DNA of 64,000 nt from Shigella phage TB004: sequence record MW822011; one strand, 5' to 3'. The notes below the pieces were generated by a model. It searched no databases. It saw only the letters and a program-made list of their open reading frames with translations, and had not been told where the DNA came from. Both the position numbers and the translations under genes were made by a program. Shown piece by piece: positions 17,044 through 62,933 of the stretch; the stretch's first letter is position 1; every line of letters begins with the position of its first letter.

Positions 17044-17284
17044 TATTCATCATCCTCGTCTTCGTCATCTTCGTCAGAGTCTTTGTCTTTTTTGTCGTCT
17101 TTATCATCACCATCTTCGTCATCATCCTCGTCTTCAGGTTCTTCACCTTCGATTAAGAAATTACGAGCGATAGCGATTTTTTCTTCTTTAATTAAATCAA
17201 TCGTTCTTGCAGCCATGGCTTCAGCAAAGAATTTACGAGCGGCTACGAGGTCGTTTGATTTAATAGCTTCAATTAAACCTTCCA

Positions 17285-39848: not shown

Positions 39849-41547
39849 TTGTGTATTGTCCAGATGAAATAGAACTCATAGATGCCATTTTTTCTGTCCA
39901 ATCACCACCAACGTCCCAATCAACTGTCCCAGCAACCTTCCAAGAAAGATTTCCATTTACTGTATTAGTCTGATTTCCTTCAACTAAAGTAGTAGCATCC
40001 CCTTTAACTGTAATGTCAGCATTACCTTCAACTACAATAGTAACATTACCTTTGACTAGGATAGTTCCATTACCTTCAACCGTCTTAGTTTCATCGCCAC
40101 GCACAAATATTGTATTGCTTCCATCTATTTGGTGGAGACGATTATCCATGTTGTAATAAATTTCTGATCCACCGACGTTAGTCTTTTTATCACCGGCTAC
40201 CAAAAAATTACCATCAGCATTTGTTATATCATACAAATTATCGACAGTTTTTCTTGTTCTTCTTCCTGATGGTGATACTTCTTCATAAGTTCCTGTCGGA
40301 TGAACTAATCTGTATCGTTCTTGTCCCGGGGTATCATCAAATTCTTGAATATGACCGCTTTCAGTTTCCATTGTATGCACATAAGGATATTCGCCTTTAT
40401 ATGAAGAAACTGGTTCTTTGAATAAAATTCTCGAGTCATTTGGAATAGGAGGGTCAGCAGGGTCAGAAGATTTAGCTACAGTAGCAGCCATTGCTGATAG
40501 AGACCTAGCTGGGGTTTTCACTTCAACACCGTATGATTCCAAATTTCCCGTAAGAATAATCATGGTAACACGGGATGCACGGCCTTTTGTTTGTTGATAC
40601 CACAATGAATCACGACCGGCTTTATATGCTTTTTCCCAATCTCCGGCTAACATAGCTGTTAACATTGTGTTAAATTTAGCTACACCGCCAACGCCCATCT
40701 GAAATGCCATATTTTCTAATGCCATTTGACGAGAACGATTAACTGCTTTCCAAACTGGGCCAACTTTAGAATGTGATTTAATGTCACGTTGCATATCAGC
40801 TAAATCACGTTCAAATAAAGTTACCGCTTCTTCCATTGTAATAGAACCCGGATTTCCGGTAATTTCACGACCAACTTGTTTTGATAAAACTTTATTAATT
40901 TGAGTCATATCACGAACTGGCTGCTTCATGATAAGATGACCAATACCAATTGTCGGATATCCTTCGGTATCCCAATAAACTTTTAGTCTTAATCCTTCAT
41001 CACGGCGAAGCATTTCAGCCATTGACATATTTGGATTATCATCAGTTGGAATCTCTGATAGTGGTCTATCATCGGGATTTATCGCAGTATCTAAATTACT
41101 ATCTTGGATAATATTAGAAGACGAATCATATCCTACTTCACCACCTTGGTTTAATACGTTCGTATCACTACCTAAACGTCGCGGATACTGGCCTGTCGGG
41201 TCTGAAAAACCTTCAAGTCTATTAGGCTTTTCACGTACTATTCCGCCATATGTACCAAGTACAATCCCGTTTGTTTTCCATTTGTCTAAAAAATGACCAT
41301 AAACTCTAGTTCCTTCTACCGGACCAGTAACGGAGCCTCCAATTCCAGACATTGCTGCAGAAGTTATAGGTTGAATAACTGACATCCATGGTAATTTATC
41401 GGTTGGAATACCCATTACGTCGCCTTGCGCTCTTTGAGGTGGATGCAGACCAACTACACGAACACGAACACGACCTAATTTTAATGGGTCCATTCTATCT
41501 TCAACAACACCAACAAACCAATTGAGGTTATTACTTATCATTTCCAT
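39820..41547 (-). CDS. 5: gp5 baseplate hub with lysozyme domain and beta-helix
   Basis: 575 aa; lysozyme motif MAEMLRRDEGLRLKVYWDTEGYPTIGIGHL; C-terminal VxGxxxxx beta-helix repeats. Confidence 0.95.
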   Translation of the reverse strand: MEMISNNLNWFVGVVEDRMDPLKLGRVRVRVVGLHPPQRAQGDVMGIPTDKLPWMSVIQPITSAAMSGIGGSVTGPVEGTRVYGHFLDKWKTNGIVLGTYGGIVREKPNRLEGFSDPTGQYPRRLGSDTNVLNQGGEVGYDSSSNIIQDSNLDTAINPDDRPLSEIPTDDNPNMSMAEMLRRDEGLRLKVYWDTEGYPTIGIGHLIMKQPVRDMTQINKVLSKQVGREITGNPGSITMEEAVTLFERDLADMQRDIKSHSKVGPVWKAVNRSRQMALENMAFQMGVGGVAKFNTMLTAMLAGDWEKAYKAGRDSLWYQQTKGRASRVTMIILTGNLESYGVEVKTPARSLSAMAATVAKSSDPADPPIPNDSRILFKEPVSSYKGEYPYVHTMETESGHIQEFDDTPGQERYRLVHPTGTYEEVSPSGRRTRKTVDNLYDITNADGNFLVAGDKKTNVGGSEIYYNMDNRLHQIDGSNTIFVRGDETKTVEGNGTILVKGNVTIVVEGNADITVKGDATTLVEGNQTNTVNGNLSWKVAGTVDWDVGGDWTEKMASMSSISSGQYTIDGSRIDIG

Positions 41548-45553: not shown

Positions 45554-45585
45554 TATTTACACGGGGTTTTAGTTGTGATACTATT
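45554..45585 (+). promoter_or_regulatory. T4-type early promoter (IP gene 1)
   Basis: ATTTAC -35-like and TGATACTAT extended -10. Confidence 0.5.
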
Positions 45586-45620
45586 ACCCTATCAAAACAA
45601 ATGAGTGATTGGAGAATAAA

Positions 45621-45893
45621 ATGAAAACATTTAAAGAATTTATCAATGAAGCTACTTTTAACGAAAAAGTAAAAATTAGTAAAGCTGTCAAGACTTTGAT
45701 TGCTGACATCAATTACCTATATGATATTGATTTAACTGACTATGTAACAGTTGGTAACAAACGTAACTTTTTCGTGTTTGACATCTCTGAACTTGACCAG
45801 AATCAAATTAACAACATTGAGCGTTTTGCTAATGATAAGGGTCTTCGTCATGAGTCAGCGGGTTATAAAAAATACGCAATTTATTTAAAATGA
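45621..45893 (+). CDS. internal protein with capsid targeting sequence (IPI locus)
   Basis: Starts MKTFKEFINE|A (CTS with I-x-E protease site); own early promoter; adjacent to 57B. Confidence 0.65.
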   Translation: MKTFKEFINEATFNEKVKISKAVKTLIADINYLYDIDLTDYVTVGNKRNFFVFDISELDQNQINNIERFANDKGLRHESAGYKKYAIYLK

Positions 45894-45923
45894 GTTTACT
45901 TTTAAATAGGGTTGTGGTACTAT
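45894..45923 (+). promoter_or_regulatory. T4-type early promoter (IP gene 2)
   Basis: GTTTAC ... TGGTACTAT. Confidence 0.5.
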
Positions 45924-45953
45924 TATCTCATCAAAATTAATTAGGAAAATAAA

Positions 45954-46262
45954 ATGAAAACATTTAAAGAATTTATCAATGAAGCGGCTGCGCCAAAGAC
46001 ATTCGTTATTAATACTCAGGCGAGTCTTGATGATGAATACGCGGAGGCAATTCTGAAGTCACTTGCTAAGAACGGTGTTGAAGTAATTGCTTCGGACTTT
46101 AAGAAAGGGGCTTCCGAGATGTTTATTTCTATAACTAAAGGATCTAAAGCTAAGATTAAATCATCATTCGGAGTTGCTCGTACCGATCAAATCGACAATC
46201 ATGACTTTAAACAAACTGGTGCTAAACGGCAGAATACAATTGCATCACGCGGAATAAAATAG
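45954..46262 (+). CDS. second CTS-bearing internal-protein-like ORF
   Basis: 102 aa; first 37 nt from ATG identical to previous gene (MKTFKEFINEA); own early promoter. Confidence 0.6.
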   Translation: MKTFKEFINEAAAPKTFVINTQASLDDEYAEAILKSLAKNGVEVIASDFKKGASEMFISITKGSKAKIKSSFGVARTDQIDNHDFKQTGAKRQNTIASRGIK

Positions 46263-46274
46263 TTTATAAAAACA

Positions 46275-46304
46275 GTTTACTTTTAGATAGGGTAGTGATA
46301 CTAT
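46275..46304 (+). promoter_or_regulatory. T4-type early promoter
   Basis: GTTTAC ... TGATACTAT. Confidence 0.5.
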
Positions 46305-49870: not shown

Positions 49871-49899
49871 GTTTACTTCTCCTTGAGGTATGATACTAT
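49871..49899 (+). promoter_or_regulatory. T4-type early promoter
   Basis: GTTTAC ... TGATACTAT. Confidence 0.5.
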
Positions 49900-57689: not shown

Positions 57690-57719
57690 GTTTACTTTTC
57701 CTCTTGACTGTGGTATAAT
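57690..57719 (+). promoter_or_regulatory. T4-type early promoter upstream of regB
   Basis: GTTTAC ... TGGTATAAT. Confidence 0.55.
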
Positions 57720-60325: not shown

Positions 60326-60907
60326 ATGGCTAGTTTAATTTTTACTTATGCAGCAATGAATGCTGGAAAATCTGCTTCTCTTTTGACTGCTGCACATAAT
60401 TATAAAGAACGCGGAATGAGTGTATTAGTTCTTAAGCCTGCTATTGATACTCGCGATTCTGTTTGTGAAGTCGTTTCTCGCATTGGAATTAAACAGGAAG
60501 CGAATATTATTACGGATGATATGGATATTTTTGAGTTCTATAAATGGGCTGAAGCACAAAAAGATATTCATTGTGTATTTGTAGATGAAGCCCAGTTTTT
60601 AAAAACTGAACAAGTGCATCAATTAAGTCGAATTGTTGATACATATAATGTTCCTGTTATGGCTTATGGTCTAAGGACTGATTTCGCTGGAAAATTATTT
60701 GAAGGTTCTAAAGAACTTTTGGCGATTGCAGATAAACTTATTGAACTAAAGGCAGTTTGTCATTGCGGTAAAAAAGCGATTATGACGGCTCGATTAATGG
60801 AAGATGGAACACCAGTTAAAGAAGGTAATCAAATCTGTATTGGTGATGAAATTTATGTTTCTTTGTGCAGAAAACATTGGAATGAATTAACTAAAAAGCT
60901 CGGTTAG
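60326..60907 (+). CDS. tk: thymidine kinase
   Basis: 193 aa, P-loop AAMNAGKSASLL, C-terminal zinc-ribbon Cys pairs. Confidence 0.95.
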   Translation: MASLIFTYAAMNAGKSASLLTAAHNYKERGMSVLVLKPAIDTRDSVCEVVSRIGIKQEANIITDDMDIFEFYKWAEAQKDIHCVFVDEAQFLKTEQVHQLSRIVDTYNVPVMAYGLRTDFAGKLFEGSKELLAIADKLIELKAVCHCGKKAIMTARLMEDGTPVKEGNQICIGDEIYVSLCRKHWNELTKKLG

Positions 60908-60949: not shown

Positions 60950-61162
60950 ATGCTACAATTAACTGAAAAGCAACTTCGCAATCTTACTGTTCTTCAATTA
61001 GATGAAATTCGTAGGGAAGTTGGAAATATCATTTCAGCTTTGCGTCGAGAAGTATCACTCAACCAATCTCCGGCAGACTATACTAGATTGCGAAATTTTG
61101 AAAAATACCTTGATAAAGTTAAGGCCGTGCATCGGCATAAAGTAAATACAGGACAAAAATGA
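60950..61162 (+). CDS. hypothetical protein
   Basis: 70 aa ORF. Confidence 0.5.
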
Positions 61163-61174
61163 TAGGAGGCCTTT

Positions 61175-61468
61175 ATGGACTTAAAAGCAACGGCATTATT
61201 CGCCATGCTAGGATTGTCATTTGTTTTATCTCCATCGATTGAAGCGAATGTCGATCCTCATTTTGATAAATTTATGGAATCTGGTATTAGGCACGTTTAT
61301 ACACTTTTTGAAAATAAAAGCGTAGAATCGTCTGAACAATTCTATAGTTTTATGAGAACGACCTATAAAAATGACCCGTGCTCTTCTGATTTTGAATGTA
61401 TAGAGCGAGGCGCGGAGATGGCACAATCATACGCTAGAATTATGAACATTAAATTGGAGACTGAATGA
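61175..61468 (+). CDS. rI: rI lysis-inhibition regulator (membrane-anchored periplasmic protein)
   Basis: 97 aa, N-terminal signal-anchor, position next to tk as in T4. Confidence 0.8.
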   Translation: MDLKATALFAMLGLSFVLSPSIEANVDPHFDKFMESGIRHVYTLFENKSVESSEQFYSFMRTTYKNDPCSSDFECIERGAEMAQSYARIMNIKLETE

Positions 61469-61851
61469 AATTCAGCGACTTTTCACAAAGTGGAAAACCT
61501 TCAAAGGCAGATGAATACTTAGGTTTATTAATGGCTGCACAAGCTTATTTTCATTCTGCGCATTTTGAAACTAAAAGTTATGCTAGACACAAAGCATACG
61601 ATTTTATTTTTTCCGAGTTGCCAGATTTGATTGATAAATTTGGCGAGCAATATTTGGGGTATTCTGGTAGAAAATACACACCTTCAATTCCAGATGCCAG
61701 TAAACTTCCTACCGACACAATTAAAATGATTGATCGCATATTAGACCAATCTAACAGCATTTACAAAGAAATGCCTCCAGCCATTCAAAGCACGATAGAT
61801 GATATTACTGGAATGTTTTACCAGAGTAAGTATCTTCTTTCCCTCGAATAA
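61465..61851 (+). CDS. hypothetical protein
   Basis: 128 aa, start overlaps rI stop. Confidence 0.5.
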   Translation: MKFSDFSQSGKPSKADEYLGLLMAAQAYFHSAHFETKSYARHKAYDFIFSELPDLIDKFGEQYLGYSGRKYTPSIPDASKLPTDTIKMIDRILDQSNSIYKEMPPAIQSTIDDITGMFYQSKYLLSLE

Positions 61852-61864
61852 CATTAGTCTCCTT

Positions 61865-62006
61865 CGGGAGTCCTTTTTTCATTTTGCCAGTTTACTTTCC
61901 AAAATGAGTATGGTATAATAAAACTATCTTATAGATCGGGAGTCCTTTTTTCATTTTGCCAGTTTACTTTCCAAAATGAGTATGGTATAATAAAACTATC
62001 TTATAG
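61865..62006 (+). repeat. tandem direct duplication (2 x 72 bp) of an early promoter cassette
   Basis: CGGGAGTCCTTTTTTCATTTTGCCAGTTTACTTTCCAAAATGAGTATGGTATAATAAAACTATCTTATAG occurs at 61865-61934 and 61937-62006. Confidence 0.9.
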
Positions 62007-62017
62007 AGGAGAACATC

Positions 62018-62206
62018 ATGAAAATTGAAGCACTTAATCAAGAAGGAAATATCTACGTTATCATTAATGGTGATTTTTTCGTCGACATGGATGAAGTTAC
62101 TAGTGAAGAACTTGTAGAACTTCTTAAGAAACGTTATGATATGTGTGATGAAGCTGCAACTCATATGGCGTGTGCAATATTCTCTCTTTCATATGTGGTG
62201 GAATAA
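62018..62206 (+). CDS. hypothetical protein
   Basis: 62 aa behind duplicated early promoter. Confidence 0.45.
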
Positions 62207-62409
62207 TGATTAGTATCGAACAAGCAGATAAAATTAAAGAATTGGTAGCTTTAATTCGCAAAGCAGACGAGGAACTTAGTGACTTTGCTTGGTTTTCGTC
62301 AGGCATTGCAAATAAAGGTGCTGAAGAACTTGAAGCTAAGGTTGATAATGCCGTAGAAGCTTTAGATATGTTTCTTGATGAAATTATCGATCATAATACG
62401 AGAGTTTAA
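62206..62409 (+). CDS. hypothetical protein
   Basis: 67 aa from MISIEQ. Confidence 0.45.
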   Translation: MISIEQADKIKELVALIRKADEELSDFAWFSSGIANKGAEELEAKVDNAVEALDMFLDEIIDHNTRV

Positions 62410-62411
62410 GT

Positions 62412-62606
62412 ATGCTAACACGTGAACAGTTTGAAAAAATCATTAAATTAGCACGTGATGTTGAAATAGATTCATACCAATTGGCAGTTGAGCATTGTGA
62501 AGGATATTCATACGATGGTATAGAAGCGGCTAAAAAGGATTTGGATAAATCCAAAGCTAAGTTAGTTCAATATCTTGAAATGATTAGGTGGAATAATGAA
62601 AACTGA
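62412..62606 (+). CDS. hypothetical protein
   Basis: 64 aa. Confidence 0.45.
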   Translation: MLTREQFEKIIKLARDVEIDSYQLAVEHCEGYSYDGIEAAKKDLDKSKAKLVQYLEMIRWNNEN

Positions 62607-62769
62607 AAAGCAGATGTTTTTAATGAAGCTAATTGAAGAATATGCTAATGCAGTTTCTGACTATGAGTATTCTTCTCGTGAAAGAGGTACAGCTTTCGCA
62701 AAGGAAGAAATGAAAATCATGGTTGATGCTCACACAAAGCTTCAGAATTTTATTGAAAACGTCATTTAA
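62596..62769 (+). CDS. small hypothetical ORF (57 aa), not in ORF track
   Basis: ATG at 62596, MKTEKQMFLMKLIEEYANAV... Confidence 0.35.
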   Translation: MKTEKQMFLMKLIEEYANAVSDYEYSSRERGTAFAKEEMKIMVDAHTKLQNFIENVI

Positions 62770-62771
62770 TG

Positions 62772-62801
62772 GTTTACAAGTTGGCAAGGTTATGGTATAG
62801 T
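62772..62801 (+). promoter_or_regulatory. T4-type early promoter
   Basis: GTTTAC ... TGGTATAGT. Confidence 0.45.
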
Positions 62802-62933
62802 AATCTTGTCAACTGCCAAGGAGAAGAGAATGAAAATTTTGTTTGTTGTGTATGTGATGATTCAATATAATTACCCAATGTTTACTTATAATCTAGTGAA
62901 CAACATTATTGATATTATTCAAAGGAGTATGTA

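Follow-up and report, generated by a model that had tools for sequence, protein, structure and literature searches.

A chimeric, partly duplicated early promoter cassette upstream of mobD.5 in Shigella phage TB004, probably copied from the soc/mrh.2 cassette

The region upstream of mobD.5 in Shigella phage TB004 (sequence record MW822011; the window is the whole analysed stretch of 64,000 nucleotides) most probably carries a chimeric and partly duplicated cassette of the promoter-early stem-loop (PeSL) type. In this reading, to which we assign a probability of about 0.8, a copy of the cassette from the soc/mrh.2 intergenic region replaced the rI.-1/mobD.5 cassette, and 72 bp of it were then doubled. 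The reading draws on features legible in the sequence: the duplication, the identity of the donor, the two intervals of exchange, a hybrid hairpin with a mismatch, and a second copy that has no hairpin. The first-pass annotation had taken the cassette as duplicated only; we find two events, a replacement and a duplication, in a cassette foreign to its locus. As it stands, the cassette is a degraded PeSL followed by a stem-less half PeSL.

Genomic context

The window comes from a Tequatrovirus. About 500 phage records match positions 61300-62700 at 90-97% identity, and the best match to the window over 8 kb is at about 97%. Genes were named from the T4 annotation of the orthologous region and the ORF list.

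60326-60907, + strand: tk (T4 annotation, ORF list)
60950-61162, + strand: rI.1 (T4 annotation, ORF list)
61175-61468, + strand: rI (T4 annotation, ORF list)
61465..61851, + strand: rI.-1 (= mobD.6), 128 aa, DUF5856 (Pfam E=5e-33; T4 orthology; identical protein on many contigs)
62018-62206, + strand: mobD.5 (ORF list, T4 name)
62206-62409, + strand: mobD.4 (DUF7438)
62412-62606, + strand: mobD.3 (DUF7438)
62596-62769, + strand: mobD.2a (DUF7438)

The final gene of the rI operon, rI.-1, lies directly upstream of the cassette. The ORF at 62018, noted in the first-pass annotation, is real and corresponds to T4 mobD.5. It opens the cluster mobD.5 to mobD.2a (62018..62769, + strand), four ORFs of 57-67 aa downstream of the tandem promoters. 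A comparison with the T4 rI-nrdC region had been suggested, and by the T4 annotation the cassette does lie there.

The genes mobD.4, mobD.3 and mobD.2a are three neighbouring DUF7438 paralogues. Further DUF7438 copies are found in relatives upstream of tk and further downstream, and their number differs between phages. A promoter-like site follows mobD.2a at 62772-62801. It has the form GTTTACA-N17-TATAGT with TG (10/12) and is followed by AGGAGAAGAGAATGAAAATT (62819-62838), which is 85% identical to the Shine-Dalgarno and start region of mobD.5 (repeat family D3). This site belongs to the same general cassette family and has no upstream hairpin. Elsewhere on the + strand, promoters of the T4 early type (GTTTAC..TG.TACTAT or TATAAT) cluster at 45556-46304, 49871-49899 and 57690-57719. 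Two near-identical ones, at 45894 and 46275, are about 380 bp apart, and each is followed by a similar leader and ATG; they look like further paralogous cassettes.

Structure of the tandem repeat

The gap between rI.-1 and mobD.5 is 166 nt long in the window and 95 nt in all 22 relatives (22/22), and the repeat occupies it. A repeat search found two 72-bp units in tandem with 100% identity, at 61864-61935 and 61936-62007. Tandem Repeats Finder returned the same array (61864-62007, period 72, 2.0 copies, 100% matches, score 288), and on direct reading of 61500-62500 the sequence TCGGGAGTCCTTTTTTCATTTTGCCAGTTTACTTTCCAAAATGAGTATGGTATAATAAAACTATCTTATAGA is present twice, back to back. The perfect 72-bp tandem duplication proposed upstream of the ORF at 62018 is thus confirmed by both programs. 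The initial coordinates, 61865-61934 and 61937-62006, describe the same repeat and fall 1-2 nt short at both ends. The main features of the cassette are as follows.

61856..61879, + strand: hybrid terminator hairpin and T-run (left arm AGTCTCC of rI.-1 type, TTCG loop, right arm GGAGTCC of soc type, TTTTTT)
61859..61870, + strand: left exchange interval, the 12-nt hairpin core CTCCTTCGGGAG (recipient type upstream, donor type downstream)
61864..61935, + strand: copy 1 of the 72-bp unit (begins in the hairpin loop, takes in right arm, T-run, -35, spacer, extended -10 and leader, ends with TATAGA; Tandem Repeats Finder and repeat search)
61890..61919, + strand: promoter P1 (GTTTAC; TTTACT at 61891-61896, 17-nt spacer, TGG and TATAAT at 61914-61919; sigma-70 scan)
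61935..61936, + strand: duplication junction TATAGA|TCGGGAG (no microhomology; creates GATC and AGATCGG)
61936..62007, + strand: copy 2 of the 72-bp unit (starts inside the hairpin loop, without the left arm; 100% identical to copy 1)
61962..61991, + strand: promoter P2, identical to P1 (sigma-70 scan)
62005..62012, + strand: right exchange interval and Shine-Dalgarno box, the 8-nt AGAGGAGA (recipient type downstream, ACATCATG)

Each unit contains the T-run, GTTTAC (61890 and 61962), TGGTATAAT (61911 and 61983) and the leader. Copy 1 stops short of a Shine-Dalgarno box; GAGGAGA (62006-62012) and the ATG at 62018 come after copy 2. Only copy 1 has the left arm of the hairpin ahead of it and keeps the stem CTCC-TTCG-GGAG (61859-61870), as the first-pass annotation had correctly stated, and copy 2 begins in the loop. 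The bases bordering the unit differ on both sides, T/A at 61863/61935 and T/G at 61936/62008. Hence the repeat comprises exactly two units (144 nt), and their junction has no microhomology.

Apart from this pair, the 64-kb window contains no large tandem repeat. The 30-nt promoter core of the unit was found there exactly twice, where 0.00 were expected from 100 shuffles. Two imperfect short-period arrays were also observed, at 39977-40080 (24 nt x 4.3, 73% match) and 17047-17135 (18 nt x 4.9 copies, 63% match); both are probably coding repeats.

The native cassette in relatives

In each of the 22 relatives that were read (22/22) there is one cassette, and its spacer, -10 box and leader are unlike those of the window. 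All 20 contigs with identical flanking proteins, drawn from GenBank phages and from assembled metagenomes of the gut and other sources, have the 95-nt gap, a single copy and the native core. Every listed Tequatrovirus match aligns across the repeat in two pieces.

The native hairpin of the 22 relatives is AGTCTCC-TTCG-GGAGACT, followed by T6-7 and CATTTT[A/G]CC[G/A]. The native core consists of GTTTACTTTC, then [C/A/T][G/A]TTTGAGCTGTG[G/A]TA[C/T]TATACAAC..ATC.GATAAAGAGGAGAACATCATG; after CC[G/A] it can also be written TTTGAGCTGTG[G/A]TA[C/T]TATACAAC..GATAAAGAGGAGAAC. The window departs from its relatives from the spacer onwards (CCAAAATGAGTATGGTATAATAAAACTATCTTATAGAGGAGAACATCATG): the native spacer and -10 box (..TTTGAGCTGTGGTACTAT..) and the leader have been replaced.

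In the older T4 record U76612, the annotation at this intergenic site comprises a terminator and, after it, the -35 and -10 boxes of "early promoter 57.9"; the T4 records AF158101 and NC_000866 contain no promoter features at either cassette site. In T4-infected cells, primer extension gave a reverse-transcriptase stop at the mobD.5 promoter (PMC1702504); this experimental support for a promoter at the site concerns the native T4 promoter only. The window shares with T4 PE57.9 and the rI.-1 terminator the position, genes and orientation, the hairpin core, the T-run, the -35 box GTTTAC and the Shine-Dalgarno box. However, the native stem has 7 bp (-10.8 kcal/mol), whereas that of the window is mismatched (-5.7), and relatives have one promoter at the locus where the window has two.

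The donor cassette

An 80-nt query centred on the duplication junction found its best match in relatives elsewhere in the genome, at 96-99% identity; the alignment fell into two pieces in circularly permuted order, which span 72 nt. This other place is the soc/mrh.2 intergenic region. The unit of the window differs at 1/72 positions from the soc/mrh.2 cassette of W143, and from that of ECO07P1 by one T fewer in the T-run, the rest being identical. The differences amount to 2 nt in sutha, 3 nt in CHD2BS1 and 7 nt in T4. The 30-nt core from -35 to -10 is identical in the soc/mrh.2 cassettes of T4 and 8 other relatives. In these 9 independent relatives, which include T4 and IMG/VR contigs, it occurs solely upstream of mrh.2 (ATGTTAAATCG...), and among the sequences compared only the window has it ahead of mobD.5. 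Judged by these sequences, the duplicated cassette is not native to the mobD.5 locus and is of the soc/mrh.2 type.

No exact 72/72 donor allele was found among the soc/mrh.2 cassettes compared, the best being 71/72 or one indel, and a scan of IMG/VR with a 61-nt core gave 0 matches. The soc/mrh.2 cassette lies about 43 kb from rI.-1/mobD.5, and the phage's own copy would lie about 43 kb past the end of the window. Either this genome itself or that of a co-infecting phage could have served as donor. Close as the unit is to the soc/mrh.2 cassettes of Tequatroviruses (71/72 for W143; 72/72 bar the T-run indel for ECO07P1), these differ from the window in being single-copy, in having a perfect 9-bp stem (-15.1 kcal/mol), and in being followed by mrh.2, not mobD.5.

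When phages are compared, the variable positions directly before the -35 box (TTTT[A/G]CC[G/A]G) are seen to segregate in both paralogous cassettes, a hint that the two loci are still evolving in concert; both loci of one genome were at hand for a few phages.

Exchange points and the hybrid hairpin

The donor and recipient cassettes have several blocks in common: CTCCTTCGGGAG, the T-run, CATTTT.CC.GTTTACTTTC, and AGAGGAGA. Exchange intervals were derived by comparing the window with 22 sequences of the recipient locus and 9 of the donor locus. On the left, the window is of recipient type up to AGT|CTCC and of donor type from GGGAG|TCC. On the right, it is of donor type up to TTAT|AGAGGAGA and of recipient type from AGAGGAGA|ACATC. 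Since both flanking genes are in their usual places, no rearrangement took place: the exchange was either non-reciprocal or the product of a double crossover.

The left switch joins the left arm of one terminator to the right arm of another, and the resulting stem has a T-T mismatch. RNA folding of the copy 1 hybrid hairpin gave -5.7 kcal/mol (z=-1.8; 11/200 shuffles fold as well), compared with -10.8 kcal/mol (z=-4.5) for the native rI.-1 terminator and -15.1 kcal/mol (z=-5.1) for the native soc terminator. The region of copy 2 and the junction reaches -0.7 kcal/mol, has no hairpin and folds no better than shuffles. A terminator scan detected both native cassettes as terminator-like and detected none in the cassette of the window. 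The weak hairpin of the first-pass annotation is indeed weak; what had been missed is the cause, namely its chimeric make-up from the arms of two hairpins.

These observations suggest the following course of events. Firstly, the paralogous cassettes of T4-like phages offer common blocks, namely the UUCG-loop hairpin core, the T-run, the -35 box GTTTAC and the Shine-Dalgarno box. Secondly, a short non-reciprocal homologous exchange, by gene conversion or double crossover, would have swapped in the soc/mrh.2 cassette, its ends falling within the common hairpin core (12 nt) and the common Shine-Dalgarno box (8 nt). Finally, in a later or the same repair event, 72 bp from the loop to just before the Shine-Dalgarno box would have been joined head to tail without homology. 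Both changes might stem from one event, if a break arose in the cassette, both ends invaded and copied the soc/mrh.2 cassette, and the extended ends were then joined without homology. Such a single-event scenario is economical but unproven.

Apparent partial conversions in other phages

Shorter patches of donor sequence were observed at the same locus in two other phages. EcNP1 (MK886800) combines the exact hybrid hairpin of the window (GGGAGTCCTTTTTT) with the native promoter core. Ec_MI-02 (OP856590; L031:4001-4046, GGGGAGTCC) also retains the native core, and its hairpin is near-identical to that of the window. Both patches are apparent short conversions from the soc/mrh.2 cassette. They imply that exchange between the two cassettes recurs and that tract lengths vary; the full core swap and the duplication occur in the window only. 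In both phages, in EcNP1 at L030:4001-4045 (GGGAGTCC), the patch places a donor-type right arm at the rI.-1/mobD.5 terminator and weakens the terminator stem.

One possibility is that the window arose in two steps, from an EcNP1-like ancestor that already had the donor right arm (GGAGTCC) and later underwent conversion of the spacer, -10 box and leader together with the duplication. The donor arm would lengthen the homology to about 50 nt, so that the left crossover could lie anywhere from the hairpin to the -35 box. The hairpins of EcNP1 and Ec_MI-02, next to native cores, are of the kind expected for such an intermediate, and, judged by the right flank, EcNP1 ranks with the closest relatives (97.9-98.8%). 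However, it is not the closest on the left flank. Moreover, the allele of the window upstream of the -35 box, TTTTGCCAG, matches the donors W143, ECO07P1 and sutha and not the EcNP1 recipient allele TTTTACCGG, so that the tract must still start upstream of that point. This history is a variant of the main explanation and equally compatible with the data; taken by itself we hold it to be possible, though doubtful.

Another variant of the origin assigns an active role to the terminator hairpin. Four boundaries fall inside the 12-nt hairpin core. Two belong to the window, where the conversion tract and the 72-bp duplication both have their left ends there (that of the duplication exactly in the TTCG loop); the other two are those of the patches in EcNP1 and Ec_MI-02. 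The hairpin might be a preferred point of breakage or exchange, for example through a structure-specific nuclease acting on an extruded hairpin or cruciform, followed by ectopic repair that produced swap and duplication as one event. The idea of hairpin-targeted exchange was speculated on by Arbiol et al. (PMC2839356), and we consider it unlikely here.

Two other routes to the repeat were rejected. Microhomology slippage between the GGAG motifs of the hairpin arm and of the Shine-Dalgarno box would give TATAGA-GGAG-TCC and a 69-nt unit, and the observed junction is TATAGA-TCGGGAG. Integration of a PeSL mini-circle would place a gene between the copies; there is none, and a circle of 72 bp seems implausible.

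Rarity of the arrangement and alternative origins

Neither the swapped form nor the duplication was found in the approximately 500 Tequatrovirus records, which, in the search for the swapped form, included T2, T4, T6 and Shigella, Yersinia and Salmonella phages. The de-duplicated hybrid (151 nt) had no match above 89.6% among 50,697 phage records, a set that excludes the window's own record. The duplication junction and the left and right hybrid junctions gave 0 exact-pattern matches in IMG/VR; this negative is weak, since positive controls show only 4-5 relevant contigs there. The duplication junction and the right hybrid junction likewise gave 0 exact matches in uncalibrated scans of JGI metagenome contigs and GTDB genomes. 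Rarity is therefore best judged against the approximately 500 GenBank Tequatroviruses and the 20 contigs with identical flanking proteins.

The swapped cassette might have been imported from an unsampled phage in which a promoter of this type is native to mobD.5, so that only the duplication would be new. Tequatrovirus genomes are indeed mosaic, and the identities of the flanks to relatives vary between left and right. On the other hand, the swapped form is in none of the approximately 500 records, and the agreement of the unit with soc/mrh.2 alleles at 71-72/72 points to a very recent copy and not to an old lineage-specific promoter. The hybrid hairpin, too, is a recombination scar exactly at the limit of homology. 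We regard such an import as very improbable.

An assembly or library artefact would mean that the phage really has a single cassette, native or swapped, and that paralogues were mis-assembled or reads were chimeric. The 100% identity of the copies fits this, as does the uniqueness of the structure among all sequences searched, the duplication and hybrid junctions resting on a single assembly. Paralogous cassettes sharing about 50 nt in every Tequatrovirus genome could tangle an assembly graph. In addition, the junction reads AGATCGG, the 7 nt with which the Illumina TruSeq adapter begins; at 61933-61939 it is the sole + strand occurrence of this motif in the 64-kb window. However, the junction is bordered by native phage sequence to the left and to the right and contains no inserted adapter bases, and for this reason the likeness is treated as a coincidence, which it probably is. 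Adapter trimming would remove such reads rather than create them, and trimmers could clip genuine junction reads. The duplication junction overlaps native sequence by 0 nt and the right hybrid junction by 8 nt, too little for mis-joining by k-mers or overlaps, so that the junctions should be present in the reads themselves. Finally, EcNP1 and Ec_MI-02 were sequenced independently and show that the exchange is biologically real. An artefact is thus, in our judgement, decidedly unlikely, and on present evidence we treat the chimeric, duplicated cassette as a real feature.

Promoters and predicted expression

Both promoter-like sites proposed before the small-ORF cluster were recovered by the sigma-70 scan. 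P1 and P2 (TTTACT-17-TATAAT) each match the consensus at 10/12 positions and have TG upstream of the -10 box. The same scan found a 10/12 TG promoter in the donor cassette. In the native recipient cassette no promoter reached the 9/12 threshold of the scan, although this promoter is active in T4 (PMC1702504). The start of P1 would be near 61926, and that of P2 near 61998, 20 nt before the mobD.5 ATG.

No hairpin or terminator was predicted between P1 and the mobD.5 ATG by the scan or by RNA folding. The P1 leader was considered as a terminator or as a structure occluding the Shine-Dalgarno box, and was rejected as such: the fold of 61926-62045 (z=-0.03) is no better than shuffles. Transcripts from P1 would be expected to reach mobD.5 and not to stop at copy 2, because the left hairpin arm is absent there and the P1 leader has no structure beyond that of shuffles.

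The rI operon has a late promoter between tk and rI.1 and is also reached by transcription from an early promoter farther away (PMC2962797). With its terminator presumably weakened, more read-through into mobD.5 may occur. Two identical extended -10 promoters 72 bp apart would presumably fire immediately after infection. Since P1 and P2 match the sigma-70 consensus with a higher score than the native promoter does and the terminator would be weakened, early expression of mobD.5 to mobD.2a is predicted to exceed that in other Tequatroviruses. Tandem promoters can interfere with each other, however, and the gain could be slight overall.

Relation to known systems

PeSL cassettes of T4-type phages were described by Arbiol et al. 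2010 (PMC2839356) and Comeau et al. 2014 (PMC4122927), and the assignment of the cassette to this type in the first-pass annotation holds, since it combines a terminator hairpin, here degraded, with an early promoter as described there. In PST and T4 the consensus is TTTACW-N17-TAYWAT with a stem-loop upstream (PMC4122927), and the window contains a sigma-70-like promoter fitting it twice. Like published PeSLs, the cassette is an intergenic composite of stem-loop, early promoter, Shine-Dalgarno box and ATG amid small ORFs, and is repeated in the genome, although its stem-loop is degraded in copy 1 and absent from copy 2, unlike the stable stems of the two parental cassettes. It lies in a hyperplastic intergenic region immediately upstream of a small ORF, and has the Shine-Dalgarno box and start codon of the downstream gene at its 3' end. 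A recombining paralogue is present at soc/mrh.2 in relatives; indeed, about 500 records have two places that match the hairpin query.

Recombination between PeSLs yields chimeric PeSLs (PMC2839356), and degraded and multiple copies of -35 and -10 boxes near indels have been ascribed to "recombinational slippage" (PMC4122927). In the published cases, genes between PeSLs are shuffled by deletion, insertion or mini-circles, whereas in the window no gene moved: one core was written over that of another PeSL at a distance of 43 kb, and the doubling is confined to 72 bp of the cassette. The terms "tandem" and "gene conversion" do not occur in Arbiol 2010 (PMC2839356). Transplantation of a promoter core between distant PeSLs without movement of genes, followed by a tandem copy, is mentioned in neither PMC2839356 nor PMC4122927. 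Still, the swap and duplication are an instance of the known process of PeSL shuffling and not a new kind of element.

Tandem amplifications in T4 usually use microhomology of 2-10 bp, as at dmd-tifA (Srikant et al. 2022, PMC9391042, where the Hp17 amplifications of Wu et al. 1991 are cited). The repeat in the window resembles them in being head to tail in a T4-type genome and in that it could raise the expression of neighbouring early genes. However, T4 amplifications cover hundreds to thousands of bp, contain genes, are often present in more than 2 copies and have 2-10 bp of microhomology at the junction, whereas the repeat in the window is 72 bp long, contains no gene and has exactly 2 copies. 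The junction without microhomology is thus atypical for T4.

The cassette may be seen as a natural snapshot of the rewiring of early transcription in T4-type phages, in which the mismatched hairpin survives as a scar of recombination. Regulatory cassettes of this kind can shuffle the genes between them; here, one appears also to have overwritten the promoter core of another at a distance and to have been duplicated. If the duplication is real, the phage should over-express the uncharacterised genes mobD.5 to mobD.2a in the early phase of infection, measured against its approximately 500 sequenced relatives. The native cassette, the hairpin-only patch of EcNP1, and the full swap with duplication form a natural allele series, which would be useful for studying the function of the mobD.5 cluster, exchange between PeSLs, and the strength of T4 early promoters in their context.
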